Shown piece after piece: positions 26,605 to 64,000 of a stretch of 64,000 bases of DNA. Every line of letters starts with the position of its first letter. The first letter of the stretch is position 1. The notes under the pieces were generated by a model, which searched no databases, had not been told where the DNA came from, and saw nothing but the letters and a program-made list of their open reading frames with translations. The position numbers and the translations under genes are program-made. Origin of the DNA: a virus. Where the stretch lies: the IMG/VR virus record IMGVR_UViG_3300037067_018253. One strand, given 5' to 3'.

Positions 26605-26607
26605 ATT

Positions 26608-27793: not shown

Positions 27794-27795
27794 TA

Positions 27796-28482
27796 CTAAA
27801 CCCCAAACAAATCACGTTCGAGTTGGAATAGCTGATATGCTTCTGCCGCACTCAACTGCCGTCCCCATATCCGAGGACGGTACATATAACCGGAGTACTG
27901 AGGCGCGCCACCGGCATTATTACATCCGAAGTACATATTTCTTACCGCGGCGGCTGGATTCACATGTACGCCTACGCTTGAATACGCTGGCTCCGCCCCG
28001 TTTATATAGATGTGACAACTTGCCCCGGAACGAGTCGCCATAATTAAATACCACTGGTTAATCAATATTACGTTTACAGTGAATGTGCTTTGCCCTGTTC
28101 CACCTTGGCGCGTGAGAAGAGATACCTTGCCTTCGACGCTAACATTCATTGACCAACCATCGGTAATCGTTGCGCCCCGGTTCATTAACGGGTATCCCAA
28201 CAGGGCGCCGGTATTTATCCACACCATGAGGCTGAAATCCCCAGCCGTAAAATTCAGGTCAGCCGTTGCAGCCGCCGGGCACTGCAAGTAATCCGGGTGA
28301 GCTGGATTGAAAGACAAATATGGCGTGCCGTTAGCCAGGGATGCCCATGACGGCGTGCCGGTTAGCGTATGCTGGTGATGCGGCTTGGCGTTATCGTTCG
28401 TCAATACCCCGGTTTCTTCCATGAAAGGAAGGTCCAGCAGTATTTGCGAGTATAGTGATTGTTTATCATATCCAATTGTCAT
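27796..28482 (-). CDS. LamG/ConA-like lectin-domain protein (paralog 5)
   Basis: HHQHTLTGTPSWASLANGTPYLSF...FSLMVWI...LERDLFGV. Confidence 0.5.
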   Translation of the reverse strand: MTIGYDKQSLYSQILLDLPFMEETGVLTNDNAKPHHQHTLTGTPSWASLANGTPYLSFNPAHPDYLQCPAAATADLNFTAGDFSLMVWINTGALLGYPLMNRGATITDGWSMNVSVEGKVSLLTRQGGTGQSTFTVNVILINQWYLIMATRSGASCHIYINGAEPAYSSVGVHVNPAAAVRNMYFGCNNAGGAPQYSGYMYRPRIWGRQLSAAEAYQLFQLERDLFGV

Positions 28483-28488
28483 GTAAAT

Positions 28489-29199
28489 TTAAACCCCGTA
28501 ATGCGAATGTTCTAATTGAAAGATGGTTTTCATTTCCATCGCATTTAGTTCCCGTCCCCATATCCTCAATTGCCCCATGTATCCATCCCACCCGTTAGTA
28601 ATCTCATTATTTTGTATGCCCACCAGCAGTTTGTTGCCACCGGCGCAGGATACAGGGTCAATCAATGTTCCGATGGTATCCGCCACATCACCATTGATGT
28701 AAAATTGCCCCGAAGCGCCATGGCGCGTTACGCCAGCAAGGTGCCACTGAGATGGAATAAATGCGCCTACCGCGCTAATTCCGGTATGGGACCCCAACTG
28801 GCTGGTCCGGAGTGCCAGTGTATTTACACCCGGGAACATATAGAACTCAAATCCATCGACATCAACAGCCCCCTGGCACACGATTTCCTGTGCCCCTCCG
28901 AGTGCATTATTGTATACCCATGCCAGGAAGGTAAAATCTCCATTAGTGAAATTAACATCAGCACTCTCAGCGCCAGGGCACTGTAAATACTTGGAACCAC
29001 CACTGAGGTCCAGATATGGCGCACCGCCTGGTAGTGAAGCCCACGCTGCGCCACCTGTAAGGGTTAATTCATGATGAGCCTTGGCGCGGTCATAAGTAAC
29101 CAGCCCGCTCATTTCCGTGAAGGGTAAGTCTACCAGCATCTGGTAGCCTATGCCGGTCTTGTCGTAGGCTATCTTCACGATCTCAATAGTACCTCCCAA
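28489..29199 (-). CDS. LamG/ConA-like lectin-domain protein (paralog 6)
   Basis: HHELTLTGGAAWASLPGGAPYLDL...FTFLAWV...LEHSHYGV. Confidence 0.5.
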   Translation of the reverse strand: MGGTIEIVKIAYDKTGIGYQMLVDLPFTEMSGLVTYDRAKAHHELTLTGGAAWASLPGGAPYLDLSGGSKYLQCPGAESADVNFTNGDFTFLAWVYNNALGGAQEIVCQGAVDVDGFEFYMFPGVNTLALRTSQLGSHTGISAVGAFIPSQWHLAGVTRHGASGQFYINGDVADTIGTLIDPVSCAGGNKLLVGIQNNEITNGWDGYMGQLRIWGRELNAMEMKTIFQLEHSHYGV

Positions 29200-29873
29200 T
29201 CGTAATCAAGCGCATTTCCAACCAGCCTGGTGAGAGTCACCTTGACACCAAAGCGGTTTGGCTCCAGCTCTACATTTTTAAGCGGCATAGATTGCGCGCC
29301 GATTAACGTAATCGTGTCTTTGAGTATGAAATTGCCGCCGGCTTTAATCCGGTAATATACTTTCAGCGCAATCGTTTCTGCCGCCGTATTATTAGTGAAA
29401 TCAATAAGAACCCTTAACGGCTCAAATACCCCAGCTGGGGCATTGTTGATATAAATATTTTGTTCTGTACCGTCTGTGGTTAAAGTGCCCCCGGTTTCAT
29501 TTAACACAAGGATAGAGGCAATCAAGTTGATCAGGTTGTTATATATATCAGTTAGCATGCCAGAGCTATTAGGGGAAGGTACGTTGACCTTGTATCTTAC
29601 GCCGGCTGGTACCTGTCCGCCCTTAAAGGCAGCGTCAACTGTTATTTCACCAGTGAGGTTATTAAATGCAGTAGCCGAATGAACATCGATTCTAGTCGGG
29701 TCATCGTAATATATTTCTATTGAGAAACCAACGAATGTATTAGCGCCATATCCAATTAAATTGGCATCAATAATACTCATTCCGCCAATGGCGCCAGCCA
29801 CAGTGGTTAAACCCTGGTATGCAACCGTGGAATGAAAAACGCTAACTAACTCATCTATAGGTGGTCTTTGCAT
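29175..29873 (-). CDS. structural-module hypothetical protein
   Basis: Operon context. Confidence 0.4.
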   Translation of the reverse strand: MQRPPIDELVSVFHSTVAYQGLTTVAGAIGGMSIIDANLIGYGANTFVGFSIEIYYDDPTRIDVHSATAFNNLTGEITVDAAFKGGQVPAGVRYKVNVPSPNSSGMLTDIYNNLINLIASILVLNETGGTLTTDGTEQNIYINNAPAGVFEPLRVLIDFTNNTAAETIALKVYYRIKAGGNFILKDTITLIGAQSMPLKNVELEPNRFGVKVTLTRLVGNALDYDWEVLLRS

Positions 29874-39402: not shown

Positions 39403-40446
39403 CTATAATTGGTAGGTGGTATATGTCTGCGATTCCCCGCTCATATATTGTATTTCAACCTGCGCATTTCCAGGCTGTAGTGTTCCATAGGTACCTACAT
39501 CTATGGTGTTTTGCCCAACTCCGCCCGGTCCAGTCGCAGAACCCAGTGTAAATCCATCAGATCTGCGAGATATAATCACGGCTACCGTCTCCGCGGCCTT
39601 TCCACTGATGGTATAATTAACCCTTACCTTTCCATTGTCAGCCAGTGCCGGTACTACGATTGATGCAGACGTGATATTTACCTGTGTGGGGGCGCCTTCA
39701 CCCCTGGCTGGTATATATACCTCAGACTCCACCCAATTAGAATATACAGGGCTGCCATAGGCATTAGGTACGCCCGCTATGGGTTTATATACAACCACTC
39801 TGAATTTGATTGCATGCATACCTTCAGGCACATCGCTTGAAACCGCCTGATACCCGTTGATAGAAAATTTTTGTTCCGGTTCTGGCACGGGCCAACCATA
39901 ATCAAGCTCCTGAACCTGTGGGCTGTAATCAGGGATGTTCATTTGCAATCTTGCTACACCAGGCTTCTCGCCGGTATAATACCACGTTCCCTGTATCAAT
40001 AATCCGGGCGGTACCGTTGTAAATGTCATCCATCCGGCCCCGCATCGCTCAAGGTATACAATGGTAGATGGTGAAGTCGGCGGCGGTTCAGTTTCTGGTG
40101 GTGCCTCCGGTGGAGTAAATGCATTGGTATAATTCTGTGCCAGTAACGACAGGTCGAGTGAATCTATGACACCATCATTATTAAAATCAGCCTGCGGATT
40201 CCATATACCGAGTGTCGGCGTAGCCATGTAGGACTCCAGTAATATATTCGTGTCCTCGTCATCCACTACACCATCATGGTCAAGGTCAAAATCTGGCTTA
40301 CCCGGTATTATCTCCGGGGGTAACTCCACGGATTCTTTATACCACGGCCACCGACCTTTCCATGGAAGATAATCCTCCAGTATTTTTGGCAGTGGCGGCC
40401 CCTCTTTAATGCCGACAGGCAACCAATCTATTATTTTAAAAGACAT
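39403..40446 (-). CDS. structural protein carrying a type I dockerin module and Pro/Thr linker
   Basis: DLDHDGVVDDEDTNILLESYM and DFNNDGVIDSLDLSLLAQNY repeats; PPEAPPETEPPPTSPS linker; N-terminal GPPLP...WPW motif. Confidence 0.6.
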   Translation of the reverse strand: MSFKIIDWLPVGIKEGPPLPKILEDYLPWKGRWPWYKESVELPPEIIPGKPDFDLDHDGVVDDEDTNILLESYMATPTLGIWNPQADFNNDGVIDSLDLSLLAQNYTNAFTPPEAPPETEPPPTSPSTIVYLERCGAGWMTFTTVPPGLLIQGTWYYTGEKPGVARLQMNIPDYSPQVQELDYGWPVPEPEQKFSINGYQAVSSDVPEGMHAIKFRVVVYKPIAGVPNAYGSPVYSNWVESEVYIPARGEGAPTQVNITSASIVVPALADNGKVRVNYTISGKAAETVAVIISRRSDGFTLGSATGPGGVGQNTIDVGTYGTLQPGNAQVEIQYMSGESQTYTTYQL

Positions 40447-42069: not shown

Positions 42070-42984
42070 TTATCCTTTTGGGTTAATTCCCAGTATTTCC
42101 CTGATTCTTTCCCTGATGTCATAGTCGTAAATACATCCATCAGTAAGATTACTGGGGAAATCTTGGCCTTGCAGATATGGCAAAAATGCACTAGCCAGCC
42201 GATTGAAGGCATATTCAGGTGGAGAAGGTGAATACTTGTCCTGCGTGCATTTAATGTTGAGCATGACCACTTGTCCAACCCACTCAGCGATCTGGTTCAT
42301 AGTTGGCGGAGATGGATTTGTAAGCCAGTACGTGCCTGGCTCTTTTATCCGCGCCATTGCATCCGTAACAGCCTCAACCTTGACGATATTAAGATGCCCG
42401 CATGGATTACCGTAAAGCCTGAAAGTAATCTCTAATGGTGGTAAATGTACCGCACCCTCGAATGCCCTGCGGATTAACTCTGCGCGCCGGTGTACCTTTA
42501 TTATTAAAGATATAAAGGTGGAAAAATGTTCTTCATTTGGACCAAACACAATCCCCGGCTTAAAAACGGTCACATTCGGAATGTCACTGTGGCTTACCAG
42601 CAGTTCGCAGACTGATTTTGATATTTCGTAGGTATTCATAGACTGGCAAAAGGCAGTGCTGCAATAATACAGGTGGGGTACTTTATGCTTTGCGCAGAAA
42701 TCTATGACGTTTTTAGTGCCTTCTACATTGGTACGCCATATTTCCCCGGATTTATCTTCTCCAAGGCGTAGAACTGCGGCCAGGTGGTATACTGCATCGA
42801 AATGTTTATCGTTCCATACCCTGCCGAAATCAGGCAATAGTATATCGCCGGAAACCTCTCCATTATCTGGATAAGCTGCACCATGATGTATGAGTTTTAC
42901 TACTTCGTTACCTTGTTTTACCAGCTTGGGTATCAGCGAACGTCCGATTGCCCCAGTACCACCGGTGACTAATATAGTTCCCAA
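42070..42984 (-). CDS. NAD-dependent epimerase/dehydratase (extended SDR)
   Basis: VTGGTGAIGRSL Rossmann motif; YxxxK at YEISK; probable TTG start. Confidence 0.7.
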   Translation of the reverse strand: MGTILVTGGTGAIGRSLIPKLVKQGNEVVKLIHHGAAYPDNGEVSGDILLPDFGRVWNDKHFDAVYHLAAVLRLGEDKSGEIWRTNVEGTKNVIDFCAKHKVPHLYYCSTAFCQSMNTYEISKSVCELLVSHSDIPNVTVFKPGIVFGPNEEHFSTFISLIIKVHRRAELIRRAFEGAVHLPPLEITFRLYGNPCGHLNIVKVEAVTDAMARIKEPGTYWLTNPSPPTMNQIAEWVGQVVMLNIKCTQDKYSPSPPEYAFNRLASAFLPYLQGQDFPSNLTDGCIYDYDIRERIREILGINPKG

Positions 42985-46575: not shown

Positions 46576-47436
46576 ATGACAACACGTAAGATATGCTCAT
46601 GGGCGCTCAAGGGGGGAGCTGGAAAAACATTTGTCGCCGCTAACCTCGGATATGCGCTTCAGCGAGTCGGACACAAAATTGGATTCACTGATGCAGATGT
46701 AACCGGACCAAAACTCCCCGGGTTTCTCGGTATGACAAGACCGTATCCATATCCAAAAGTGGATGTGGAGAAAGTCGAGAAGTACCCTGCGCTATGGAAT
46801 GGATTTGAAGTCTATAGTCTTGCGTTTGAGTTCGATGGCGCCGTGATGCTCAAGGGCGGCGAAGAAAAAATACGTGCGTTCGGTCATGAGTATGAAATCC
46901 ATGGTACAGGCATATATAATCTGGTAAAAAATACCCTTGAACACCTCAAGTATTCCGATGACCTGGATTATCTTATATACGACCTGCCTCCCTCGACCTC
47001 AGACAGTGTTCTGTCTCTCTTTGAAAATATCAAGGACCTTTACGGCGTTATATTGGTCTGCCAGCCGACCGGACAGGCCATTGATGATATGGAACGCGCC
47101 GTGGACCTGCTAATAAAAAGAAGGTTGCCTGTTATCGGCATGGTCGGCAATATGACACACGTATCCTGTCCGGCATGTAGCCATGAGTTCTACCCATTCG
47201 CTGAAAACTCTATCAACCTTATGCAGTTCTGTAAGGACAACGGAATACCGTATTTAATGGGTGTACCACTCACCCGCGATAAGTATGCTATCGATGTTCA
47301 ATTTGATCTGCTGGCTAAAATAGTGGATGTATCCAATCCAATTAAACTTAGTGATGTCCCCTTGCCAAAAAGACTGGGGCAAATGGTACTCAGGAAAGCC
47401 GTTGAATCAATGGTGAATAATACTGCGAATGAGTAA
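46576..47436 (+). CDS. Mrp/NBP35/ApbC-family Fe-S cluster carrier ATPase homolog
   Basis: KGGAGKT P-loop, LDYLIYDLPPSTSD, VILVCQPTGQAIDDM, CPACSHEF CxxC block; all collinear with Mrp/ApbC. Confidence 0.7.
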   Translation: MTTRKICSWALKGGAGKTFVAANLGYALQRVGHKIGFTDADVTGPKLPGFLGMTRPYPYPKVDVEKVEKYPALWNGFEVYSLAFEFDGAVMLKGGEEKIRAFGHEYEIHGTGIYNLVKNTLEHLKYSDDLDYLIYDLPPSTSDSVLSLFENIKDLYGVILVCQPTGQAIDDMERAVDLLIKRRLPVIGMVGNMTHVSCPACSHEFYPFAENSINLMQFCKDNGIPYLMGVPLTRDKYAIDVQFDLLAKIVDVSNPIKLSDVPLPKRLGQMVLRKAVESMVNNTANE

Positions 47437-52690: not shown

Positions 52691-52860
52691 GGCAGAGGGA
52701 TTTTACCCTCCGCCTGATTCGGGGAAGCAAGATGTAGCCTTACCAAGTGTCACACCGACAAAAGAAACGGTCACAGCTTGGAACGCAGAGGAATGAAGGG
52801 TTAGCCCACCCAATGGAGTTTCCCTGAGTCAGATAGAGGGCAAAAGAATGAGAGAGAAAG
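52691..52860 (+). promoter_or_regulatory. structured 5' leader of cassette A (paralog of 60757..60982)
   Basis: Conserved 5' hairpin ggcagagggattttaccctccgcc, conserved 3' end cagatagaggg...agagagaaaATG; the long-range helix differs from copy B but pairing is retained. Confidence 0.4.
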
Positions 52861-53151
52861 ATGAACCATAAGATTGCCAGAGCAGAAGCACTACGCCTAT
52901 CTAAAGAAACAATGGTTAAGGCAGAGCAGGAACGCAAACAACCCGCAATCTCTCACTGGCAAGACAAGCCTGATAAAGTTGGATACTGGTGGCTATTCAA
53001 TGAACGTAAAAATGTTGTATTAGTTATTCATAATATTAATAATCATGGTTTCGAAGTTTTGAATAACATGGGTCTTTTTCCTGTAGAAAATTATGGTGCC
53101 AAGTGGCTTTACATCGAGCAACCAGAAGCTCCAGAAGTAGGAGGGAAATAA
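52861..53151 (+). CDS. cassette A gene 1: hypothetical protein with conserved C-terminal domain
   Basis: Shares HWQDKPDK.GYWW...KWLYIEQPEAPE.GG with 60983..61498. Confidence 0.5.
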   Translation: MNHKIARAEALRLSKETMVKAEQERKQPAISHWQDKPDKVGYWWLFNERKNVVLVIHNINNHGFEVLNNMGLFPVENYGAKWLYIEQPEAPEVGGK

Positions 53152-53417
53152 TGCCTAAAGTATGGAACAAAAGAGATAAAAATACTCCTGTTGATGTTGT
53201 CTATGTAGGCAGACCTAGTAAATGGGGAAATCCTTTTAAGATAGGCAAAGACGGAAACAGAACTGAGGTTATTAACAAATACAGAATGAGAGTTATTAAT
53301 ATTCTCCAATTTACAGATAGTCATTGGCTTGATGAACTTAAAAATAAAGATTTAGTTTGTTGGTGCGTTCCTGCACCTTGCCATGCTGATGTACTGTTAG
53401 AACTTGCTAACAGATAA
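53151..53417 (+). CDS. cassette A gene 2: DUF4326-like protein
   Basis: VVYVGRPSKWGNPF...CWCVPAPCHADVL; the track ORF (53103) is extended by the conserved upstream sequence; probable start is ATG 53151 after ggagggaaata. Confidence 0.5.
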   Translation: MPKVWNKRDKNTPVDVVYVGRPSKWGNPFKIGKDGNRTEVINKYRMRVINILQFTDSHWLDELKNKDLVCWCVPAPCHADVLLELANR

Positions 53418-53645
53418 CCTTGCCATGTGGAAGTGGCAAGCCTGTACCAGCCACCCGAAAGAGCTAGGCTAACCAGTTGGTGTCACCGAGGATTGAGTAG
53501 GGTAGTCCAAGCTGAGTAGTATGACTTGCGACGGCTACTGGCTGGTACAGGAATCAAGACTCAAGGTGCTGGTGTCATAAAGGTAGACCTGAGATAGACG
53601 CAAGCGTGGTTTGAAAAGTGAACCAGCCAGCACCTGGGTGAATAA
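53418..53645 (+). ncRNA. conserved structured element A (paralog of 62017..62235); unclassified
   Basis: Conserved hairpin cttgcca-tgtggaag-tggcaag; 12-bp helix cctgtaccagcc/ggctggtacagg with compensatory change in copy B; conserved aatcaagRctcaaggtgctggt and ccagccagcacc. Confidence 0.4.
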
Positions 53646-54087: not shown

Positions 54088-54398
54088 AACTTATAGACAA
54101 AGTAGCAAATTTAGTATGCTGTGATTGCCCTGAAGGGAAAAAGCTCATCAAAAACTGGAGATGTATTCTTGGTTTTAATCCAGTTTTATCAGAGAAGCAT
54201 TGTACTCAGTGTGAAGCTGAAATGAAGAAATATCGCGAGAAAATAAAATGTAGATATTTTAATAGGATATTATCTCAGAAAGAAATTAAAGAGATGTATA
54301 ATGTTGAAAAATACATAATGAGAGAAGAAGATTGCCTGATAATGAAAAGGGGATCGCCGTCAATCATTATCCGGGGCGGTAATATGGAGGTTAAATGA
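54084..54398 (+). CDS. Cys-rich small protein
   Basis: CCDCPEG...CTQCE. Confidence 0.4.
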   Translation: MKLIDKVANLVCCDCPEGKKLIKNWRCILGFNPVLSEKHCTQCEAEMKKYREKIKCRYFNRILSQKEIKEMYNVEKYIMREEDCLIMKRGSPSIIIRGGNMEVK

Positions 54399-55078
54399 GC
54401 GAGTTAATGAGAGAAATACCGTACCTGTTATTAGTGGCCGGTGGCAGCCTGATTGGACTCTGGTGGGCAAACTACTTCTTCGACCACGGTATCAGCCATT
54501 GGAGAAGTCGTAAGGTTGCCCATGCTTTTGGCGGCGGGGCTAGTCTGTTAGCGGCTTTACTATTTGAGTCGTGGGTATTACCAGTGGCGCTTGCCACTAT
54601 GTTCGCACTGATATTGGGCATAGCAAACAGGCTTGCTCCAAAAACCTTCCGTGGTACCGGTGGCTCTGGGCGTAATACCCGGGCGATGTCTGAATTTTGG
54701 TTTGGTTTCTCTACTGCCTTAATCTGGGGTATCGGCTGGGGAGTATTTAATCGCCCCATTGAATCTACCGCCTGCATCCTTATGATGTCGTGGGGAGATG
54801 CTGTAGGGGGATGGGTTCGCGCTTTCCGCTATAATACAGCCACGAAGGGGTGGGAAGGCAGCATGGTTAATCTCTGTGTTTGCATGGTATTGGCGTGGGC
54901 ATTTCTATCACCTTTATGGCTGGGCGTTCTCGCCGCGGTTGGCGCTGCGGCCGCTGAATATGCGTGTGGAGATGTTAGCAAGATAAGGTTCCTGAGGTGG
55001 GCGGATGATAACTTGTTTATACCGGTAGTGGCAGCTTTAATTTACTTCGGTGGACTTTATGCGATAGGGGCACTGTAA
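54395..55078 (+). CDS. CTP-dependent polyprenol (dolichol/phytol) kinase / CdsA-like integral membrane protein
   Basis: Multi-TM; WGDAVGGWVRAFRYNTATKGWEGS matches the G-D-x-x-G...K-G-x-EGS signature of the DolK/DUF92 family. Confidence 0.45.
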   Translation: MSELMREIPYLLLVAGGSLIGLWWANYFFDHGISHWRSRKVAHAFGGGASLLAALLFESWVLPVALATMFALILGIANRLAPKTFRGTGGSGRNTRAMSEFWFGFSTALIWGIGWGVFNRPIESTACILMMSWGDAVGGWVRAFRYNTATKGWEGSMVNLCVCMVLAWAFLSPLWLGVLAAVGAAAAEYACGDVSKIRFLRWADDNLFIPVVAALIYFGGLYAIGAL

Positions 55079-56382
55079 TGCTCAATCCCTGTTATAGTGA
55101 TAATACCTCTGCCTTCTATGAAATGGACTGCCTAGATGGCCTAAAAGATATCCCTGATAATTCTATAGACCTTCTTTGTACGGACCCGCCATATGGACTC
55201 GCATTCATGGGATTAAAATGGGACAAGGCTGTTCCACCAGTAGATACATGGAAACAGTGCCTGCGTGTCCTTAAGCCCGGGGCATTTGGGTTTATAATGT
55301 GCATACCGCGCCAAGATTGTTTATCCCGGATGATTGTTAATCTGCAAGACGCTGGATTTGAAACGGGCTTTACGTCAATGTACCACACCTTTGCCCAAGG
55401 CTTTCCGAAGGCAGAGAATATATCGAAATCCATAGACCGTAAACTCGGGGTACAACGCACTGTGGTAGGCAAGAAAATGGTTGATATTGGTATCCAAAAG
55501 GGTTCTATGCACGCTGGACAGGATACTAATGTGGTTGAGGTTGATGATACCATAGCCACGTCTCCGCAGGCTAAGGCTTTAGACGGGAGCTATACTTATA
55601 ACCCTAAGCCAGCTATTGAAGTCATTTTGGTGGTGATGAAACCGCTTGAAAGGAAAACCTACGTAGAGCAAGCCATGGATAACCAGAAGGGTGTTGTTTG
55701 GTTTGATGATTGCAGGATACCGGTGGACCCGGACGTAGACGATCATCGGCTAGGCGGTAAAGGCACGTGGTCAACTGGAAAGATGTGCAAGAACACCTAT
55801 GAGGGCGGGTATGCAGGGGAAAGAGTTGGCTCATCGCCAGCAGGCAGGTTTACGGCTAATCTACTCGTTTCTAACGATATTCTTAATAATGGCATAGAGT
55901 GGAAATCTGGTAGTAATGTGACCGGGATAGAACCGTCAGTACCAACCAAGAATGTTTACGGTGAATACGAAAGACGTAGTTTCGTTTCCTATGGTGACAC
56001 CGGTTCATTTAGCCGCTTCTTCAGTCTGGATGCATGGTGGAGTAATAAGATAAAAAACTTACCGGAATCAGTACAAAAAACCTTTCCATTCTTTCTGGTG
56101 GCCAAGGCATCTGCAGGCGAGAGGAATAATGGTATTGAGCCAGGCTGTGAAAATCATCATCCATCAGTTAAACCCTTAACTCTTATGAGCTATCTTGTAA
56201 CATTAGGCAGCCGCCCCGGTGACACCATCCTTGAGCCATTCCTTGGTTCCGGTACTACTGCAATCGCATGTAAAATATTAAACCGGAAGTGCATTGCGTT
56301 TGAAATCAGCCACGAATATATTCAAATCGCTATATCCCGTCAGAATCTGATACAGACAAAATTATCAATACCCGCCGTCTAA
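55078..56382 (+). CDS. beta-class DNA amino-methyltransferase (N6A/N4C)
   Basis: Motif IV DPPY (LLCTDPPYGLAF); motif I EPFLGSGTTAIAC; last 7 codons and stop lie inside the IS left end. Confidence 0.7.
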   Translation: MLNPCYSDNTSAFYEMDCLDGLKDIPDNSIDLLCTDPPYGLAFMGLKWDKAVPPVDTWKQCLRVLKPGAFGFIMCIPRQDCLSRMIVNLQDAGFETGFTSMYHTFAQGFPKAENISKSIDRKLGVQRTVVGKKMVDIGIQKGSMHAGQDTNVVEVDDTIATSPQAKALDGSYTYNPKPAIEVILVVMKPLERKTYVEQAMDNQKGVVWFDDCRIPVDPDVDDHRLGGKGTWSTGKMCKNTYEGGYAGERVGSSPAGRFTANLLVSNDILNNGIEWKSGSNVTGIEPSVPTKNVYGEYERRSFVSYGDTGSFSRFFSLDAWWSNKIKNLPESVQKTFPFFLVAKASAGERNNGIEPGCENHHPSVKPLTLMSYLVTLGSRPGDTILEPFLGSGTTAIACKILNRKCIAFEISHEYIQIAISRQNLIQTKLSIPAV

Positions 56383-57597
56383 AACCCCGTATTTCAATAC
56401 TGGGGATACAGACGGCAAAACCCTTTTGGGATTTCTTTTCTATTTCGTTTGTGCTATAATGTAAATAATGCATAAAACTACTTTCCAGTATCGCATATAC
56501 CCGACCAAAAAGCAATTGGCGTTACTGCAAGGCACTCTTAACGAGTGTCGCTGGCTTTACAATCACTTTCTTGAAGAGCGCAAGAATTCCTGGGAACAGA
56601 AACAGGAATCCATTACAATGTACGACCAGATTAAAACATTGCCATCCCTTAAAAAGGATAATGCTTCTTTGGGTATGGTTCATAGCCAGGTACTGCAAGA
56701 TGTGGCAGTACGTATTGATCTGGCGTTTAAGGCTTTCTTCAGGCGTGTCAAGGCCGGAGATAAGCCCGGTTACCCGAGGTTTCGCGGTACCGGCTGGTAT
56801 GATAGTTTCACGTATCCACAAAGTGGCTATTCTATTAGCATGGATACGATCACACTGTCTAAGATTGGAGTAATTAAAGCCGTTATCCACCGACCCATCG
56901 AGGGTAAGATGAAAACCTGTATTGTAAGGCGCACGTCTACCGGTAAATGGTTCGTATCTTTCTCTTGTGAAGTGGAAGATAAACCGCTTCCAGAATCCAA
57001 CGAGGCTGTTGGCATCGATGTTGGATTGGAGTCTTTCGCTACTCTTTCCACCGGGGAATCTATCGCCAATCCACGCTTCTTTAGAACTGATGAAAAGGCG
57101 CTGGCCAAAGCACAAAAGAAAATGTCTAAATACGACAAAGGCACACCTGAGAGACGGAAAGCTCGTAAGGTAGTATCGCATATACATGAGCGAGTTGCCA
57201 ATAGACGTTCTAACTTTGCTCACCAGCTTAGTCGTAGAATCGTAAATAGCTATGGAGTTATCTGTGTAGAAGATATCCAAACCAACCGGATGCTTCATAA
57301 TCATTGTTTGGCTAAATCCATTTCGGATGCAGCTTGGGGTATGTTCTTCGCCTGCCTCGCGTACAAAGCTGAAAATGCTGGTCGCAGGTATAACGCTGGC
57401 AACCCCGCCTACACTACTCAGGATTGCTCCGGGTGCGGACACAGACAGAAGATGGAACTCTCTGAAAGAGTCTATCATTGTCCTTGTTGTCAGCTTACAT
57501 TGCCTCGCGACCATAATGCCTCACTTAATATTCTGGCTATCGGGCTGGATAGCCTGGGTCTTGTCCCTAGAAGCCCTAGTCATAGGGAACAGTCACT
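56360..57597 (+). mobile_element. IS200/IS605-family TnpB-only element (IS1341-like), about 1.24 kb
   Basis: LE with hairpin ccccgtatttcaatactgggg; tnpB; RE with terminal hairpin ccctagtcataggg; LE and RE homologs elsewhere in the window define the ends. Confidence 0.7.
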
Positions 57598-57601
57598 ATG
57601 A
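56468..57601 (+). CDS. tnpB: TnpB (IS605 OrfB) RuvC-like RNA-guided nuclease-family transposase accessory protein
   Basis: N-terminal YRIYPTKKQLALLQ; RuvC-like core; C-terminal Zn-ribbon CSGCGHRQK...CPCCQ. Confidence 0.8.
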   Translation: MHKTTFQYRIYPTKKQLALLQGTLNECRWLYNHFLEERKNSWEQKQESITMYDQIKTLPSLKKDNASLGMVHSQVLQDVAVRIDLAFKAFFRRVKAGDKPGYPRFRGTGWYDSFTYPQSGYSISMDTITLSKIGVIKAVIHRPIEGKMKTCIVRRTSTGKWFVSFSCEVEDKPLPESNEAVGIDVGLESFATLSTGESIANPRFFRTDEKALAKAQKKMSKYDKGTPERRKARKVVSHIHERVANRRSNFAHQLSRRIVNSYGVICVEDIQTNRMLHNHCLAKSISDAAWGMFFACLAYKAENAGRRYNAGNPAYTTQDCSGCGHRQKMELSERVYHCPCCQLTLPRDHNASLNILAIGLDSLGLVPRSPSHREQSL

Positions 57602-58488
57602 ACATCGGCTTGCTTAACCTGGAACCGAAATACAAAAACTTCGCCCTTGAAAAATTGCGCATCTATCATCAGTCTAAGGGTGATTACGCAGAAGATTACT
57701 TCGCCTTGAATCATTACGACAAGGTGTATGTTTCCAGTATATTTACATTCACCGGCAAGTCAATAGTGCCACAGGGGGCTGTGTGTGGTGGATCCGGCTT
57801 CGATTTGACCACTGTTTTGCCACCGGAAGTAGAAGATATACAGCCACATCTTAATTTTGGATTTACCACGCGCGGATGTCCCAATAATTGCCCATTTTGC
57901 ATCGTGAGGCGTAAAGAAGGGGATATTAAGATTGTATCTCGCCTGAAGGATTTATGGAACGGTGTGAAGGGTGCACTGATTACTCTTTATGATAACAATG
58001 TACTGGCGGTAATGGAGCACTTTCAAGAGGTTTGCCGTGATTCGGTAGAGTACCATGTCAAGCTGGATTTTAACCAGGGACTGGACCACCGGAAACTTAC
58101 ACCGGAGATAGTCGGGGTGATGAAGTCCATTAGCCACGTCGAGTATCGTTTCGCATTCGATAGCCCTGCCTATTACAATTCGGTAGAACGTGCCCTTAAA
58201 TTACTTCAAGATGGAGGTATTAACCGCAGCCTTTGGTATGTTTTGGTCGGATTTAACACCACATTTCAAGAGGATTTAGACCGGGTTAATTTCCTCCGGA
58301 GCCGCGGACAACAAGCCTATATCCAAAGATATCAACACCATGCCAACGATTACAAATACATTGCCCTGGCGCAATGGGTTAACCAGCACAATATCTTCTA
58401 TGGCATGACGTGGGAACAATTCCTTGCCACAGACCACAGTAGGAGAAGGGGATATGCTAAATTAGTCCTTGACAATACAGTGCAATAG
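57598..58488 (+). CDS. radical SAM-like protein
   Basis: CxxxCxxC at GCPNNCPFC; start codon abuts the IS right end. Confidence 0.45.
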   Translation: MNIGLLNLEPKYKNFALEKLRIYHQSKGDYAEDYFALNHYDKVYVSSIFTFTGKSIVPQGAVCGGSGFDLTTVLPPEVEDIQPHLNFGFTTRGCPNNCPFCIVRRKEGDIKIVSRLKDLWNGVKGALITLYDNNVLAVMEHFQEVCRDSVEYHVKLDFNQGLDHRKLTPEIVGVMKSISHVEYRFAFDSPAYYNSVERALKLLQDGGINRSLWYVLVGFNTTFQEDLDRVNFLRSRGQQAYIQRYQHHANDYKYIALAQWVNQHNIFYGMTWEQFLATDHSRRRGYAKLVLDNTVQ

Positions 58489-58524
58489 TTGTATGATTAG
58501 TACAAATCCACTCAGGAGTACACT

Positions 58525-58821
58525 TTGATTACGTTCGGGCAAAAACTTCGGCAAATCCGCAAGGAAAAACATCTAAACCAAACCGAAATGGCTAAAATAC
58601 TGGAATGGGATTTCACGTATTTATCCAGACTAGAGAATAATGTGAATCCTCCGTCGATGGAGACAGTTAATAACGTAGTTAATAAACTGAATATAGAACT
58701 ACCACTCTCCGATGAACTCTATGCCTTGGCGCATAAGCTCCCCCCGGACATATCTGAGAAGATTACCATAGAGGTTATCAACATCGTGAGGGAGTTCACA
58801 GAGGGGTCGGATGCAAACTAA
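58525..58821 (+). CDS. XRE-family HTH transcriptional regulator
   Basis: FGQKLRQIRKEKHLNQTEMAKILEWDFTYLSRLENN. Confidence 0.55.
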   Translation: MITFGQKLRQIRKEKHLNQTEMAKILEWDFTYLSRLENNVNPPSMETVNNVVNKLNIELPLSDELYALAHKLPPDISEKITIEVINIVREFTEGSDAN

Positions 58822-59209
58822 AATAATAATCATAGCCTTAATCACATGCGCCGCAATTATAGGAATGATAGTCGGTATAGTATATGGTTCAATTCCAATT
58901 CCAAATAAATATACCACGCAACAATATTTCGATGACCGCGAACAGATGTTCCAATACATTGCCACTCTTCCTATAGAGAATAGCAACATCACGATAACAA
59001 ACATAAATGATAAACTGCCAGCGGAAATCAGGGGTAAATACATCGCTGTACAAATCGATATATCTATTTTATATAACTCTGAAATTAAATTGGATTTACC
59101 GCGTATCAGAGGTGGGGTAAGTACCGGTGTTCCTATTGGAATCGGCACATTCCTATTGGCATTTGTCTTGTTTATGCTTGGTGCAGGGGCCTTTATGCGA
59201 TGGAAATGA
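58811..59209 (+). CDS. small membrane protein (2 TM)
   Basis: Hydrophobic N- and C-terminal segments. Confidence 0.4.
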   Translation: MQTKIIIIALITCAAIIGMIVGIVYGSIPIPNKYTTQQYFDDREQMFQYIATLPIENSNITITNINDKLPAEIRGKYIAVQIDISILYNSEIKLDLPRIRGGVSTGVPIGIGTFLLAFVLFMLGAGAFMRWK

Positions 59210-59421
59210 AAACCATGAAATTGCATACCTGCGCTAATTGCAAGGGGCATAGATTCTATATAGTGATGCTTGAAACACGCATCGCTGAGTTCAGGGAGAA
59301 GAATGATAAACCTGATATAGAAACCAACAAGCAATTTAGGAGTATTCACTGCACTAATTGCGGTGAGTCCGTAATGGGTAGACATCTTAGAATAATGATG
59401 GAGGAGTTGAAAATAAAGTGA
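59200..59421 (+). CDS. Zn-ribbon protein
   Basis: CANCKGH...CTNCGE. Confidence 0.4.
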   Translation: MEMKTMKLHTCANCKGHRFYIVMLETRIAEFREKNDKPDIETNKQFRSIHCTNCGESVMGRHLRIMMEELKIK

Positions 59422-60398
59422 AGATTGGCACAGTACCATTGGGGGTAAAATTAAAGGCGTGGTTTTGGACCCTTGAGAGATTCTTCGCGACACCATTCTT
59501 TGGAGCCGCCCTGTTTATCGGCGTGGCGCTTTCCGGTGGTTCCATGACAAGTCTGACAACGTGGTTGGCTTTTATCGCCGGCATATCCTTGATGTGCGCC
59601 GGACATTGCCACAACAGTTTCTTGGATTATTCATGGACTGGCCTGGACAAGGGTGAAGTCGAGGACCGGAGTGCCGAGAAATCTTACTGCGGCGGGCAGA
59701 ATCTTATTGAGGCCGGGGTAGTAAGTTCGCGGGAATGCGCTTTTGTGGGATTAGTATGGGATGCGATCGGGATAGGGATATTGGTGTGGATGACGATACA
59801 CTTCCATCTCTCTGTGATGATGATTTACCTGGCCATCATGAGCGCAATTATCCCAATTGCCTACTCCGCAGGGAAATTTACTACCTGGGGACACGAACTG
59901 TCATTAGGAATATCCTGTGGACCATTACCAGTCCTGATTGGAGCTTTTGCCGTTAATCCAAGTCCACCCGTGATTAATCTGTTGCTGGTTTCAATAATAC
60001 CGGCTGCTATACTAAGTTTCGCCGGACTGGCCATAGATGAGTTCCCGGACGCATTAGCGAATCTTAAAAAAGGTGTCAAGAGTTTGCCTTATAAAGTCTG
60101 GCAATATTCGACTATAGAGATAGGGATAATACCGGGGGGCATCGAGGGTTCAAAGTCAATGGAAACACTGCGCTGGTATGTGACCGGCTGGCTGTTGATG
60201 GTATTTATCTACCATGTATTCCTGATTAACATTGGAGTTCTGGCGCCGATGACTGGAATAGCTTTTATAACACTACCAATGTTGCTGGCTTCGCAGGTGT
60301 TCCTTAAGGCCAATTTCGACAAAGCCGCAGTGTGGATAGTGGCGCTAGGGGCAGCATATCTAATACTTCTGCTCGCCGGGCAAATAATCGGAGGATAA
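59418..60398 (+). CDS. UbiA-superfamily-like polytopic prenyltransferase
   Basis: 8-9 TM; Asp-rich segments NSFLDYSWTGLD and IDEFPDA in loop positions expected for UbiA motifs. Confidence 0.4.
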   Translation: MKIGTVPLGVKLKAWFWTLERFFATPFFGAALFIGVALSGGSMTSLTTWLAFIAGISLMCAGHCHNSFLDYSWTGLDKGEVEDRSAEKSYCGGQNLIEAGVVSSRECAFVGLVWDAIGIGILVWMTIHFHLSVMMIYLAIMSAIIPIAYSAGKFTTWGHELSLGISCGPLPVLIGAFAVNPSPPVINLLLVSIIPAAILSFAGLAIDEFPDALANLKKGVKSLPYKVWQYSTIEIGIIPGGIEGSKSMETLRWYVTGWLLMVFIYHVFLINIGVLAPMTGIAFITLPMLLASQVFLKANFDKAAVWIVALGAAYLILLLAGQIIGG

Positions 60399-60399
60399 G

Positions 60400-60747
60400 A
60401 TGAAACTATCTAAAGCTGCAATTGAGTTGATTGAAAAAGCGCTGGATACTGGACATGCTTGTCGGGTGCATAATGGGCGACCGGTTATAGGGGGCAATGG
60501 GGGAGTTGTAGAAATACAGGTACTGCCTAAAAATATGATAACGGCAAAAACTCCGTTTCCTTTATTTATGGCTGATGAGAACGAGCCAAGTATAATAAGA
60601 GTGCAAGTAGATAAAAGGGATTTTGAATTTATTACAGTAGCGGAGTTTCCTGCTCGATATAGTCATAAAATATGGCTTGATGGTCTGTTACTCCATAGCG
60701 AGGATAACAGTGAGATGAGTGGAATGACGGGCTATTTTCCAGGATAA
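60400..60747 (+). CDS. hypothetical protein
   Basis: ORF. Confidence 0.4.
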   Translation: MKLSKAAIELIEKALDTGHACRVHNGRPVIGGNGGVVEIQVLPKNMITAKTPFPLFMADENEPSIIRVQVDKRDFEFITVAEFPARYSHKIWLDGLLLHSEDNSEMSGMTGYFPG

Positions 60748-60756
60748 ATAATCGGT

Positions 60757-60982
60757 GGCAGAGGGATTTTACCCTCCGCCTGGTGGGTTGGAACTCGGGA
60801 GAGACTTTATATAAAGGGCTATCATCGTGGGAAACAAAGCGATTAACTATCGTGGCGTAGAACCACATAAGCACCGATAAAACTGGCGGTGACGCAGTTC
60901 GGGCGGAGGTACAGGTCATCCCCAATATATAGCCTGTACAGGGAGTCCAGCCTACCAGATAGAGGGTAAGAAGGAGAGAGAA
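60757..60982 (+). promoter_or_regulatory. structured 5' leader of cassette B
   Basis: Same conserved 5' hairpin and 3' end as leader A; 12-bp long-range helix ctggtgggttgg/ccagcctaccag (two G-U pairs). Confidence 0.4.
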
Positions 60983-61498
60983 ATGAAAGATTATCGAGTA
61001 AGTTGTTGGACAATCATAGGGGCGGAATCAGAAAAAGAGGCAAGAGAATCATTTTGTCGAGATATAGACGAAAGAAATGTTGATGTCGAACTTGAAGGAC
61101 AAACACTACATGATAATACATGGAACTGCAAAAATGACTGTATTTATATAACGCCTGATGGATGTTATATAGATGATAAGATGCCGAATCCCAGGGGTAC
61201 TTTGTCTTGTGAGTGTGAGAACGGTAGCTACCCCCTTTGCCCACGTTACGTACAGGCTGAAAAAGCCAATCAAAACAATCACTGGCAAGACAAGCCGGAC
61301 AAAGCTGGATACTGGTGGAGATACCATCCAGCGTATCGTATTCCTCAGCTAACAGAGATATTTGGGGAAAAGGAACTACTTGTTAATTACGCAGGCATTC
61401 TTATAGTTTCAGTAGACACAGATTTAAAAGAATATTATCCCGACTCCAAGTGGCTTTACATCGAGCAACCAGAAGCACCAGAAGCAGGAGGGGAATAG
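60983..61498 (+). CDS. cassette B gene 1 (paralog of 52861..53151)
   Basis: Shared C-terminal domain; distinct Cys-rich N-terminal half. Confidence 0.5.
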   Translation: MKDYRVSCWTIIGAESEKEARESFCRDIDERNVDVELEGQTLHDNTWNCKNDCIYITPDGCYIDDKMPNPRGTLSCECENGSYPLCPRYVQAEKANQNNHWQDKPDKAGYWWRYHPAYRIPQLTEIFGEKELLVNYAGILIVSVDTDLKEYYPDSKWLYIEQPEAPEAGGE

Positions 61499-61503
61499 TA
61501 AAT

Positions 61504-62007
61504 ATGAGAGCTGATATGCCAACTATTGTCTGTCTTTGTGGTTCTACACGCTTCGGTGAGGCGTTTAGGGAAGCACAGTTTCAGGAAACTATGAACGGTA
61601 AAATAGTGCTGACCATAGGTTGCAATATGAAATCTGATGCTGACTTATTTGGGCACATGGCAGAACCAGCCATACAGGTTATCAAGAAGCAACTGGATGA
61701 ACTTCATAAACGCAAGATAGACCTAGCCGATGAAATCTTAATCTTGAATGTGAATAGCTACATTGGAGAATCAACACTGAGTGAACTCGAATATGCAAAA
61801 GCACACGGTAAACGAATTAGATTTATTGAGGAAATAGGCGCACCTGGAATCCGTGACCCTGAAAGTATCTGTGATGATTTTAAACCCATTGGTGGAGTTT
61901 ACGGAAACTCTAACGTTGGGGAGTGCGAATCTGATGGTCATTACAAGTGTCTTGATTGTGTGTGTCGTGAGCCATTAACTAAGTATGATTTTCCAGAGGA
62001 AAGCTAA
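61504..62007 (+). CDS. cassette B gene 2: hypothetical protein
   Basis: MRADMPTIVCLCGSTRFGEAF...; the track ORF (61450) is extended by the conserved upstream sequence. Confidence 0.45.
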   Translation: MRADMPTIVCLCGSTRFGEAFREAQFQETMNGKIVLTIGCNMKSDADLFGHMAEPAIQVIKKQLDELHKRKIDLADEILILNVNSYIGESTLSELEYAKAHGKRIRFIEEIGAPGIRDPESICDDFKPIGGVYGNSNVGECESDGHYKCLDCVCREPLTKYDFPEES

Positions 62008-62016
62008 TTAACAATT

Positions 62017-62235
62017 AAATAACCTTGCCATGTGGAAGTGGCAAGCCTGTATCAGCCACCCTACGGGGCTTGTAGTAGCGATGGTTTTGACCTGACGTAA
62101 GACGAGGCTACTGGCTGATGCAGGAATCAAGGCTCAAGGTGCTGGTAACGTATACGCTTGTCTCGTGTAGTGTTTCAAGTGTCTACGGAAGTGGTTAAAA
62201 GCCAGCCAGCACCAAAGCCTAAAAGCATCGGGCGA
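62017..62235 (+). ncRNA. conserved structured element B
   Basis: See element A; cctgtatcagcc/ggctgatgcagg (C-G to U-A compensatory change plus G-U). Confidence 0.4.
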
Positions 62236-62370
62236 ATAGATGAAAAGTAAAGTCAGTGGTAGGTGAGGAGTACCACGCAGGAGAAATGGCGGGAACACCC
62301 TAACGTCACCTGCAATGCTAGTGCAAGACTAGCCACCCGACCAAAGCCTAAAGAGAGAGGGAAAAGCTAA

Positions 62371-62630
62371 ATGACTTCAACGGAATTATTCATGGCAGCA
62401 ATCGATAAGTGGGGGAGGGCGTTACAACTTGTGATGGTTTGCGAGGAAACAGCCGAACTTCAAAAAGAAGTCTGCAAAATCATACGGGGTGACTGGTCAA
62501 ACAACCGGATGTTAAAATTGCAGACGTTGAATTGACTCTCTCCCAACTCAAACTCATGACCGGAACCAGCGAAGAAGTAGAGCGTCAAAAGAAGGTTAAA
62601 CTTGAACGCCTGGGAGCAGAAGCTAAATGA
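62371..62630 (+). pseudogene. MazG-like NTP pyrophosphohydrolase, frameshifted
   Basis: Frame 1 gives AAIDKWGRALQL...EETAELQKEV and stops at 62535; the frame continuing IADVELTLSQLKLMTG...KLERLGAEAK completes the MazG pattern. Confidence 0.4.
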
Positions 62631-62791
62631 ACGCACGTAAGCGCATCATCAAGATTACTCGCAAGATGAAACGGGAAACTGAGGGGCTGAATGTAGCATA
62701 CCGCAAGCTGTGCCGGTTGCAGAAGAAATCAGAACTTGAAGCTCGGAGGATGATTTAGGAAGTTAAAACAGATTCAGCGATGGAGGGATAG

Positions 62792-63223
62792 ATGGAATTA
62801 ACACCAACTAAGGCACTATCTGGCTATGCCGAATATTTCTATTGCCTGGCGATGAACTGGAAGCCCGTGGAAAACAGGAACTGGCCACTTACCCGGTTCT
62901 TTAGGCGGTCACAGTTGCCAATCAGAATATACTTGCACGCCAGTAAGACGAAGGGAACACGCGAGGATAAGCTATTTATACAGTCCTGTTTACTCCCTAA
63001 CCAGTGGCAAGAGTTCATGGAGGTAGACTGGGACAGGATACGCGGGTGTATCATCGGGGAAATTACTCTTACGGATGAGGTAACGGATGATGATATCGGT
63101 CTACCGGCCGTTCAATCTCCGTGGTTCTTTGGACCCTATGGGTTTGTGTGCGAGGACGGTATATTGTATGATAAACCAATACCATGCCGCGGCAGAACGT
63201 TTTTCTTTAAGCCGGAGGTATAA
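62792..63223 (+). CDS. ASCH-domain (PUA-like) protein
   Basis: WKPVENRNW...IRIYLHASK matches the ASCH core. Confidence 0.5.
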   Translation: MELTPTKALSGYAEYFYCLAMNWKPVENRNWPLTRFFRRSQLPIRIYLHASKTKGTREDKLFIQSCLLPNQWQEFMEVDWDRIRGCIIGEITLTDEVTDDDIGLPAVQSPWFFGPYGFVCEDGILYDKPIPCRGRTFFFKPEV

Positions 63224-63224
63224 A

Positions 63225-63482
63225 GTGCCAGCTATTGAGCAGGAAATACGCAATACAATGCTAATTGGCTCCTGTTGTTGGTGGGATGATGAGAATGGCT
63301 GGCAATTCCACTATATTGAGCATGAGGATGTATTTGAGAGAATATTTTCCTCCAAACACCATGCATGCCTCGTGAAATTATTTGAAAGAACCCTGGATAC
63401 AACTGAGGTTAATAGGATTAGGGATAATGAGTCAAAGTGGTTAGAATATAGAATAGAAAGGGATAACGATGGTCACAAATAA
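63225..63482 (+). CDS. hypothetical protein
   Basis: The track ORF 63087..63482 overlaps the ASCH gene; probable start at GTG 63225 or ATG 63258. Confidence 0.3.
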   Translation: MPAIEQEIRNTMLIGSCCWWDDENGWQFHYIEHEDVFERIFSSKHHACLVKLFERTLDTTEVNRIRDNESKWLEYRIERDNDGHK

Positions 63483-64000
63483 ACCCAAGTTAATTAGCAT
63501 CGGTTTTCAGCCGGCCCCATATGAATATACGCAGGAAGAGATATTCAAGGTCATGGGATATCCGAGGCCATGGTTTCGTATATTCCGTGAAGCGCAGATA
63601 GACAGGAGGTATTTTTCGATACCACTAGAAAAAGTCAAGGCGTTGTCTTTCCAAGAACAGCAAGAGCAATACCTGAAAAGCGCCGTGGAAATATCGAAAC
63701 GGGCTGCGTTGAATTGTCTGGATGGAAGGGATCCCCATGAAATAGGGTGCCTTGTATATGCAAGTTGCACTGGAATAGCCCCTGGGCCCACTGTGGGGCA
63801 CTACCTGATGAGCGAGCTCGGCCTGAAGGATGATGTTTTTATCACAAATATAGGCGGCATGGGATGTGAGGGTGGGGGTACACCCGGGTTAAAGCGGGCT
63901 GTTGATTTTACCATGGCCAATCACAAACAGAGCCTGGTAATCGCCACTGAACTATCCAGCTTGTCTTATTTCCCCGAGATAGGTGGTTTGGATAGTAGCG
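63469..64000 (+). CDS. type III polyketide synthase (chalcone/stilbene synthase-like), 5' partial (runs off window)
   Basis: Manual translation with no stop to the window end; [27 protein letters not shown] aligns with the CHS active-site Cys region [35 protein letters not shown] aligns with GCFAGGTVL. Confidence 0.55.
   Translation, partial: [177 protein letters not shown]

Follow-up and report, generated by a model that had tools for sequence, protein, structure and literature searches.

A dispersed four-gene module

We analyzed a 64,000-nt stretch of the IMG/VR virus record IMGVR_UViG_3300037067_018253 (hereafter, the window), focusing on four genes: those for a polyprenol-kinase-like membrane protein (KIN), a UbiA-like prenyltransferase, a type III polyketide synthase (PKS), and an extended short-chain dehydrogenase/reductase (SDR). 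These genes constitute a conserved module, the window copy of which has been pulled apart. A first-pass annotation, made from the sequence alone, had collected KIN, the UbiA-like protein, a partial PKS, and a radical SAM protein into a lipid or polyketide cluster near the 3′ end of the window; the open reading frames (ORFs) named there are all present on the plus strand at the coordinates assigned to them. The module genes lie as follows.

42070..42984, minus strand: extended SDR, NAD(P)-dependent reductase/epimerase-like, 304 aa (PF01370)
54395..55078, plus strand: KIN, predicted polytopic membrane protein of 227 aa resembling polyprenol (dolichol/phytol) kinases of the CdsA/CTP-transferase superfamily
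59418..60398, plus strand: UbiA-like intramembrane prenyltransferase, 326 aa, GTG start (assigned by predicted fold and motifs)
63469..64000, plus strand: type III PKS, first 177 of 351 codons, the gene being cut by the window end (PF00195)

The set is thus spread over 22 kb and two strands, with the SDR gene 12 kb off on the opposite strand, and KIN is separated from the UbiA-like gene by genes for a DNA methyltransferase, TnpB, a radical SAM protein, and a helix-turn-helix (HTH) regulator. Base composition is uniform over the region and gives no foreign-island signature.

Linkage was assessed by tblastn of the window proteins against 107 related loci. All but one were retrieved through similarity to the UbiA-like protein: IMG/VR gave 4, metagenomes 80, and species-representative genomes 22; one further contig, L007, completed the set. 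KIN was found in 91 loci, the SDR in 65, and the PKS in 42, always on the strand of the UbiA-like gene. Where at least 4 kb of upstream and at least 5 kb of downstream sequence was available (17 loci, including two pairs of duplicate or near-identical contigs), KIN was present in 17/17, the SDR in 15/17, and the PKS in 10/17. The genes fall within ~3.6 kb in the orders KIN>UbiA>SDR, KIN>UbiA>PKS>SDR, and KIN>PKS>UbiA>SDR, and this compact arrangement is seen directly in L007 and in a 68.9-kb ENA contig. In most relatives, the DNA methyltransferase and TnpB genes are missing and KIN and UbiA abut. In the 65 loci, the SDR gene comes immediately after UbiA or PKS; the SDR at 42070, cited by the first-pass annotation as a distant companion of its cluster, is a real extended SDR and the fourth member of the module. 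The proposed functional grouping therefore stands for KIN, the UbiA-like protein, the PKS, and the SDR, which form a tight same-strand string in relatives, but not for the radical SAM protein.

Assignment of the module proteins

Two contigs identical to the window (L001 and L002, 100% identity over 11,209 nt and 1,381 nt) together supplied the complete PKS of 351 aa. The window fragment alone passes PF00195 (32.2 bits, cut-off 27), and the full-length protein passes both chalcone-synthase (CHS)-type domains (PF00195, 40.5 bits; PF02797, 50.3 bits; cut-off 27). Among NCBIfam models, the type III DpgA model scored 125 bits against 43 bits for the best FabH model, both far below the equivalog cut-offs. 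The 60 best Protein Data Bank (PDB) matches are all type III PKSs, headed by Mycobacterium tuberculosis Pks11 (E 5e-22) and followed by THNS, 2-pyrone synthase, and CylI; Pks11, the nearest solved relative, is a long-chain alkylpyrone synthase. A Cys133-His274-Asn307 triad is invariant in 25 homologs and aligns with the Pks11 triad motifs. By sequence, the protein is a genuine and complete type III PKS, as had been proposed from the partial ORF; it is predicted to condense malonyl-CoA iteratively and to cyclize the chain into an aromatic or pyrone product. The possibility that the first-pass annotation had set against its own call, a truncated FabH paralog, is ruled out because the protein is full-length, passes PF00195 and PF02797, scores best with the DpgA model, and has only type III enzymes among these solved relatives.

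Metagenomes from aquifers, sediments, and peat yielded about 300 PKS proteins of this kind. One of the related genes (L090, 11139–13331) encodes a PKS of 730 aa with a central LAGLIDADG_3 match; the insert is probably an intein or homing endonuclease.

The 326-aa protein had been annotated as a UbiA-type prenyltransferase. It fails the family model, with no match to PF01040 even at E ≤ 10 and a sole weak family match to TIGR01475 (E 0.034), but homologs, motifs, and predicted fold place it in the superfamily. More than 339 homologs were found, and many of those at 45–57% identity carry a precomputed PF01040 match. Six residues that are invariant in 38 UbiA-like sequences (N66, D70, and D77; D207, E208, and D211) mark two Asp-rich motifs, the first with an atypical NxxxDx6D spacing. 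The AlphaFold2 model (pLDDT 94, pTM 0.92) matched exclusively UbiA-family structures at E ≤ 1e-3 in Foldseek. The DGGGP (digeranylgeranylglyceryl phosphate) synthases 6m31 and 7bpu ranked on top, followed by AfUbiA (4tq4), ApUbiA (4od4; TM 0.64/0.74), and UBIAD1 (8djk). We take the protein to be a divergent UbiA-superfamily enzyme; for its putative prenyl diphosphate donor and its acceptor, the guide is gene context, namely UbiE-like methyltransferases in cellular loci and the PKS in viral ones.

KIN likewise escapes the standard models. Searches of Pfam, NCBIfam, and PHROGs with the 227-aa protein gave no match, including none to PF01148 or PF01940/DUF92 at E ≤ 10, but profile searches tie it to the dolichol/phytol-kinase family. 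JGI annotation calls several of 28 close homologs dolichol or phytol kinase, although such names fall short of experimental proof. A KIN profile searched over 1.84 billion representatives returned 334 matches and reached one protein, P0240, at E 2e-10, the cluster of which is named dolichol kinase by NCBI. Among 53 distant relatives, one matches PF01148 (E 0.007) and three carry DUF92 as a separate C-terminal domain. In these three long proteins, the KIN profile corresponds to the N-terminal half and PF01940/DUF92 to the C-terminal half; in P0252, for example, the two cover residues 42–224 and 247–483. This architecture is the COG0170-COG1836 fusion, with a Sec59-like N-domain, described by Makarova et al. 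(PMC5898192), and it supports the family link; COG1836 is the VTE6 phytyl-phosphate kinase family (PMC9782597). Residues D135, E188, and D205 are invariant in close relatives, and two Asp and one Glu are invariant across the 53 distant relatives; judging from two separate alignments, these acids probably correspond. Foldseek of the KIN model against the PDB gave noise only, and the KIN sequence profile found nothing relevant among PDB sequences. Because of the JGI and NCBI names, the profile matches, the DUF92 fusions, and the conserved acids, we accept the prediction that KIN is polyprenol-kinase-like, with cytidylyltransferase activity also possible.

The SDR passes PF01370 with 64.7 bits against a cut-off of 20.9. 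In its TGxxGxxG motif, T7, G8, and G11 are invariant and G14 is at least 90% conserved; S109, Y119, and K123 are invariant as well.

Cellular relatives and probable host

Clustering of neighboring ORFs was used to sort the loci by type. Seventy-one share additional window genes, namely those for a ParA/NUBPL-like ATPase, 145/147-aa proteins, and large tail-fibre-like proteins, and are referred to here as viral-type. Eleven are cell-type: KIN and UbiA are followed by a class I methyltransferase (PF01209 UbiE/COQ5, 72 bits) and a second, convergent methyltransferase, and the group is flanked by chromosomal genes for MutS2, an OYE-like oxidoreductase, and an ABC transporter. Fifteen loci fell in neither type. 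Neither the window nor the viral-type loci encode a methyltransferase of the cellular type. An acyl carrier protein (ACP) gene (PF00550) adjoins the PKS gene in several viral-type loci (e.g., L030, L010, L087, and L079), and in several lineages PKS and ACP interrupt the string between KIN and UbiA. The window itself yielded no ACP gene.

A prenyltransferase combined with a UbiE-like methyltransferase follows the logic of prenylquinone pathways. The coupling of KIN-UbiA to UbiE/COQ5-like methyltransferases in cells therefore favors a prenylated aromatic product over a lipid-linked sugar and, together with the ring-forming PKS of the mobile element, suggests that the acceptor is aromatic.

The operon of KIN, UbiA, and two methyltransferase genes was observed on contigs of cellular Dehalococcoidales and other Chloroflexota (L094, 4151–7374; L107, 6513–9758; L069, L064, L105, L108, L103, and L110); the UbiA gene of L110, a 2-Mb Chloroflexia contig, is fragmented.

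Of the 22 matches in the genome collection, 16 were binned as Dehalococcoidales or other Dehalococcoidia, and most of the others as other Chloroflexota. Based on this binning and on the distribution of homologs, the element probably infects Dehalococcoidales, and its KIN-UbiA pair appears to stem from a cellular Dehalococcoidales operon.

A candidate pathway and its alternatives

The first-pass annotation had left the product as either a prenylated phenolic lipid or a lipid-linked glycan. The former is better supported, owing to the UbiE/COQ5-like methyltransferases of the cell loci, and we give it about an even chance that the module makes a prenylated phenolic or quinol-like membrane lipid in the infected cell. 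The product, its benefit to the virus, and all four chemical steps are inferred from gene content. The PKS would use malonyl-CoA to extend an acyl starter, probably fatty acyl-CoA or acyl-ACP, and would close the product into a small alkyl-substituted ring, either a phenol or a pyrone. KIN would phosphorylate a free prenol with cytidine triphosphate (CTP), salvaging it into the prenyl donor pool, and the UbiA-like enzyme would attach the prenyl chain to the ring within the membrane. The SDR would reduce a carbonyl of the polyketide or of its prenylated derivative. The radical SAM, DNA methyltransferase, TnpB, and HTH genes between the module genes would be unrelated insertions.

Several observations weigh against this proposal. 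The PKS is absent from ~40% of the long-flank loci; KIN, UbiA, and the SDR must therefore be capable of functioning in its absence, and an acceptor other than a polyketide is conceivable. The product of KIN would be a prenyl monophosphate, whereas aromatic UbiA enzymes take diphosphates, and the module contains no second kinase of the DUF92/VTE6 type. The nearest folds of the UbiA-like protein are DGGGP synthases rather than aromatic prenyltransferases, and its sequence profile matched no solved UbiA among PDB sequences. The SDR matches solved structures over the Rossmann (cofactor-binding) half only. Finally, because the module genes of the window are dispersed over 22 kb and two strands, their co-expression is not assured.

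The chief rival is a lipid-linked sugar pathway, in which KIN would supply a polyprenyl phosphate, the UbiA-like enzyme would add a phosphoribosyl or sugar phosphate, and the epimerase-like SDR would convert the sugar to give a polyprenyl-phospho-sugar donor, with the PKS as an optional component. Such a product would alter the envelope or S-layer glycan of the host, for example in superinfection exclusion. It is the chief rival because the PKS is optional, a monophosphate is made with no second kinase, and the Rossmann-half matches of the SDR are ambiguous. KIN-UbiA-SDR is the most conserved core of the module, and a polyprenyl monophosphate is the exact acceptor of the phosphoribosyltransferase subclass of UbiA enzymes, as in the decaprenyl-phospho-arabinose pathway. 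The best PDB matches of the SDR include CapD, GalE, and other nucleoside-diphosphate-sugar enzymes, and in relatives the module adjoins genes for large tail-fibre-like and dockerin-domain proteins. Nevertheless, the SDR matches mix these sugar-nucleotide enzymes with CCR, DFR, and thioester reductases and are confined to the cofactor-binding half, so they are of no use for choosing between a phenolic lipid and a lipid-linked sugar. Cellular KIN-UbiA pairs go with UbiE/COQ5-like methyltransferases rather than with sugar enzymes, PKS and ACP genes have been inserted between KIN and UbiA in several lineages, and the module showed no glycosyltransferase, flippase, or DprE1-like oxidase. We consider a lipid-linked sugar unlikely.

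Somewhat less probable still is a non-aromatic lipid tail, with the PKS and an ACP acting in a FabH- or OleA-like manner, the SDR as a ketoreductase, and the UbiA-like enzyme prenylating a non-aromatic acceptor; the product would be an unusual hydroxy or branched acyl chain. The ACP beside the PKS in some relatives, a match of the PKS to PF08541 (ACP_syn_III_C), and the ketoreductase, CCR, and thioester-reductase relatives of the SDR are consistent with this chemistry. Set against it are the two CHS-type domains above their cut-offs, the 125 bits of the type III NCBIfam model against 43 for FabH, the uniformly type III solved relatives, and a window that yielded no ACP gene.

That the element makes archaeal-type lipids, with the UbiA-like protein as a DGGGP-synthase-like ether-lipid enzyme and the 227-aa protein as a CarS/CdsA-like cytidylyltransferase producing a CDP-activated lipid, strikes us as quite improbable. 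The idea draws on the top-ranked Foldseek matches, 6m31 and 7bpu, but Foldseek scores scarcely distinguish UbiA subfamilies. The KIN profile leads to dolichol kinase names and DUF92 fusions rather than to CarS or CdsA, and neither a geranylgeranylglyceryl phosphate synthase nor a glycerol-1-phosphate dehydrogenase was seen nearby.

A chance gathering of unrelated accessory genes within 22 kb, which the intervening methyltransferase, TnpB, radical SAM, and HTH genes and the one gene on the other strand might suggest, is correct for the radical SAM gene and scarcely credible for the other four, which are contiguous and co-oriented in dozens of contigs, their order varying and their association constant.

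Comparison with known systems

Clusters of the agqABCD type reportedly carry, besides a methyltransferase, a monooxygenase or acyl-CoA dehydrogenase, and lack a polyprenol kinase and an extended SDR. Shared with agqABCD (Actinoplanes missouriensis) and with the losA neighborhood (PMC7587189) is the presence of a type III PKS and a membrane UbiA-family enzyme in one cluster, and the expected product class is likewise a prenyl-bearing alkyl-phenol or hydroquinone. An actinomycete cluster with a type III PKS and a UbiA prenyltransferase is described in a passage of PMC10896814 that cites Awakawa 2011 and in Table 1 of PMC7587189. Those clusters are chromosomal in Actinomycetota, whereas the present set belongs to anaerobic Chloroflexota, where it sits on an element that is mobile or viral, and its UbiA-like protein falls short of PF01040.

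Type III PKSs with tailoring enzymes also give rise to membrane alkylquinones (PMC9927152). In pkqABC/srsABC of Mycobacterium and Streptomyces, a type III PKS likewise forms the ring of a membrane redox lipid, PkQ, which the same source, in a passage citing Anand 2015, presents as an alternative electron carrier at low oxygen. PkQ depends on a methyltransferase and on an oxidoreductase that uses O2, and the alkyl starter, rather than a prenyl chain, forms its tail. The viral module, by comparison, has no methyltransferase or hydroxylase and does have a prenyltransferase and a kinase; the hallmark of the Agq and PkQ systems, a dedicated methyltransferase plus hydroxylase or oxidoreductase accompanying the PKS, was found neither in the window nor in the viral-type loci.

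The tocopherol set comprises VTE5 phytol kinase, VTE6 (DUF92), VTE2 (UbiA family), and the methyltransferases VTE3 and VTE4 (PMC9782597). This tocopherol/prenylquinone pathway of cyanobacteria and plants likewise leads from a CTP-dependent prenol kinase through a UbiA-family aromatic prenyltransferase to UbiE-like methylation. Compared by class, the cellular Dehalococcoidales operon of KIN, UbiA, and two methyltransferases has the same enzymes, and distant KIN relatives are fused to DUF92. The differences are that no DUF92 kinase, cyclase, or homogentisate pathway occurs here, that the hosts are anaerobes, and that the virus has a PKS and an SDR where the cell operon has methyltransferases.

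The decaprenyl-phospho-arabinose pathway employs a UbiA-family phosphoribosyltransferase and the DprE1/DprE2 epimerase pair. In this mycobacterial route, a UbiA-family enzyme acts on a polyprenyl monophosphate and an SDR-dependent epimerization follows, which would fit KIN-UbiA-SDR. However, the present set has no DprE1-like flavoenzyme, phosphatase, or arabinosyltransferase, its SDR is extended rather than classical, and no sequence link was found.

As with phage auxiliary metabolic genes and biosynthetic clusters, host-derived genes sit here in an accessory or early region amid methyltransferases and small ORFs; what differs is a multi-gene membrane-lipid/polyketide module that occurs in 0 of 50,697 deposited phage records.

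Intervening genes and the surrounding element

The following features accompany the module in the window.

55078-56382, plus strand: N6/N4 DNA methyltransferase, intervening, outside the module (Pfam match)
56468-57601, plus strand: TnpB/OrfB_IS605, intervening, outside the module (Pfam match)
57598..58488, plus strand: radical SAM protein, 296 aa, outside the module (phrog_9298, E 4e-56)
58525-58821, plus strand: HTH_3 regulator, intervening (Pfam and PADLOC HTH matches)
58811-59209 and 59200-59421, plus strand: two small ORFs, intervening
Between the UbiA-like gene and the PKS gene, plus strand: several ORFs of unknown function

The radical SAM protein had been counted as a tailoring enzyme of the pathway, a role we reject because its gene co-occurs with the module in none of the 107 loci. 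It carries the CxxxCxxC motif (GCPNNCPFC), scores 24.8 bits with PF04055, below the 29.5 cut-off, and matches phrog_9298 over its full length. Its relatives, at 30–34% identity, come from viruses of Bacteroides, Clostridium, and Methanomassiliicoccales that are devoid of the module; there they are encoded in early regions, among genes for PAPS-reductase, ASCH, and DNA-methylase proteins. The gene belongs to a generic phage early-region family unrelated to the module. The HTH_3 regulator and the two small ORFs had no tblastn match in the 107 loci and are not conserved with the module either.

The cluster had also been expected to continue beyond the window, which is so for the remaining PKS codons only. 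In the identical contigs, the PKS gene is followed by genes for a 146-aa unknown protein and a C5 DNA methylase-like protein and by small unknown ORFs; with no biosynthetic genes farther downstream, a longer cluster is rejected.

Scans of the window with Rfam and for tRNAs were empty, and a promoter/terminator scan performed no better than on shuffled sequence. The HTH protein was the sole match to PADLOC defence models, the module proteins giving none.

Some neighboring features recur as well. The TnpB gene lies between KIN and UbiA in the window, and a 42%-identical TnpB is present in reverse orientation in a second lineage (L008, ~3988, and L017, ~83, minus strand), which suggests a recurrent insertion site. 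A ParA/NUBPL-type P-loop ATPase (46576-47436, plus strand; PF10609, 136 bits) is encoded a few genes upstream of the module in 51 loci and is followed by a conserved 145/147-aa protein; it could be part of a partition system or an Fe-S carrier. A non-coding element of 130–160 nt, with no Rfam match, occurs in two plus-strand copies (53414-53573 and 62019-62146), each just 3′ of a paralogous gene pair (52861-53417 and 60983-62007). Each copy has an 8-bp hairpin followed by a closing helix of 12–13 bp, in which one pair has changed in compensatory fashion from C-G to U-A; the interior varies, and the 3′ tail is conserved. An exact 26-nt hairpin is likewise duplicated (52691-52716 and 60757-60782), and together these repeats bracket an 8-kb segment that contains the KIN to UbiA-like genes.

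That the element is phage-borne or viral is plausible. The window encodes phage-like proteins (Phage_rep_O, a DnaC/IstB-like loader, a tyrosine integrase, ArdC, DUF1064, and DUF4326) along with a PAPS-reductase-like protein, several DNA methyltransferases, and proteins with PHROG matches. Five related contigs of 40–69 kb are listed in IMG/VR, and relatives recur on contigs of ~65–70 kb. No terminase, portal, or major capsid gene was found among the ~30 ORFs scanned with Pfam or PHROGs, or in precomputed Pfam matches over ~0–13 kb and 19–40 kb. With no capsid or terminase gene recognized, the viral nature is unproven, and a highly divergent virus and a mobile element of some other kind are both possible. 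When five large or mid-region ORFs were searched against phages by tblastn, four gave nothing and one matched hypothetical proteins only; megablast of 54–64 kb against deposited phages gave 0 matches.

The 22–40 kb block encodes six LamG paralogs, a C1 peptidase, dockerin-domain proteins, and unknowns. The six Laminin_G_3 paralogs (~225–245 aa) are arrayed in tandem at ~22500-29200 on the minus strand beside the papain-like C1 peptidase (22524-23222), and the array and peptidase may serve receptor-binding or lysis functions. Two ORFs with dockerin type I domains and a small rubrerythrin-like ORF (39403-40446, minus strand; 2109-2399, plus strand; 10680-11009, minus strand) are odd for a phage-like element.

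The first-pass annotation had remarked on the rarity of such metabolism in phages, and database counts agree. Neither the UbiA-like protein nor KIN has a match in the 50,697 GenBank phage records, and the PKS has only two doubtful matches at 24% identity, in Staphylococcus phage records. Within IMG/VR, the module is confined to five contigs of this lineage. Literature searches for virus-borne type III PKS/UbiA modules, or for Dehalococcoidia phages with prenyltransferases, turned up nothing pertinent.

Significance

The enzyme superfamilies and the pairing of a PKS with a UbiA enzyme are already known. What appears to be new is their joining with a prenol kinase and an SDR, their presence in anaerobic Chloroflexota on an element that is mobile or viral, and the cellular operon. 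We tentatively propose, as a possibility that we ourselves find rather doubtful, that a large lineage of as yet undescribed viruses of ~65–70 kb, infecting Dehalococcoidales of the subsurface and peat, makes its own prenylated polyketide lipid for the membrane in the course of infection, with a KIN-UbiA pair captured from a host operon. That lipid could serve in redox chemistry or in protection, in the manner of a quinol or tocopherol. The four module genes are small and intact, and the proposal is directly testable.

Given the more than 330 UbiA-like and ~300 PKS proteins in aquifer, sediment, and peat metagenomes, the module is common and hence ecologically relevant rather than a one-off. 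The cellular kinase-UbiA-methyltransferase operon of Dehalococcoidales is itself unstudied. Cultured Dehalococcoidales are reported to be without quinones (PMC10772276), and the proposal, if true, would reveal an unrecognized prenyl-lipid in this bacterial group. It would also represent the first virus-encoded type III PKS pathway. Viral auxiliary genes mostly adjust host pathways, and a self-contained, multi-gene lipid pathway would widen the known scope of viral synthesis.

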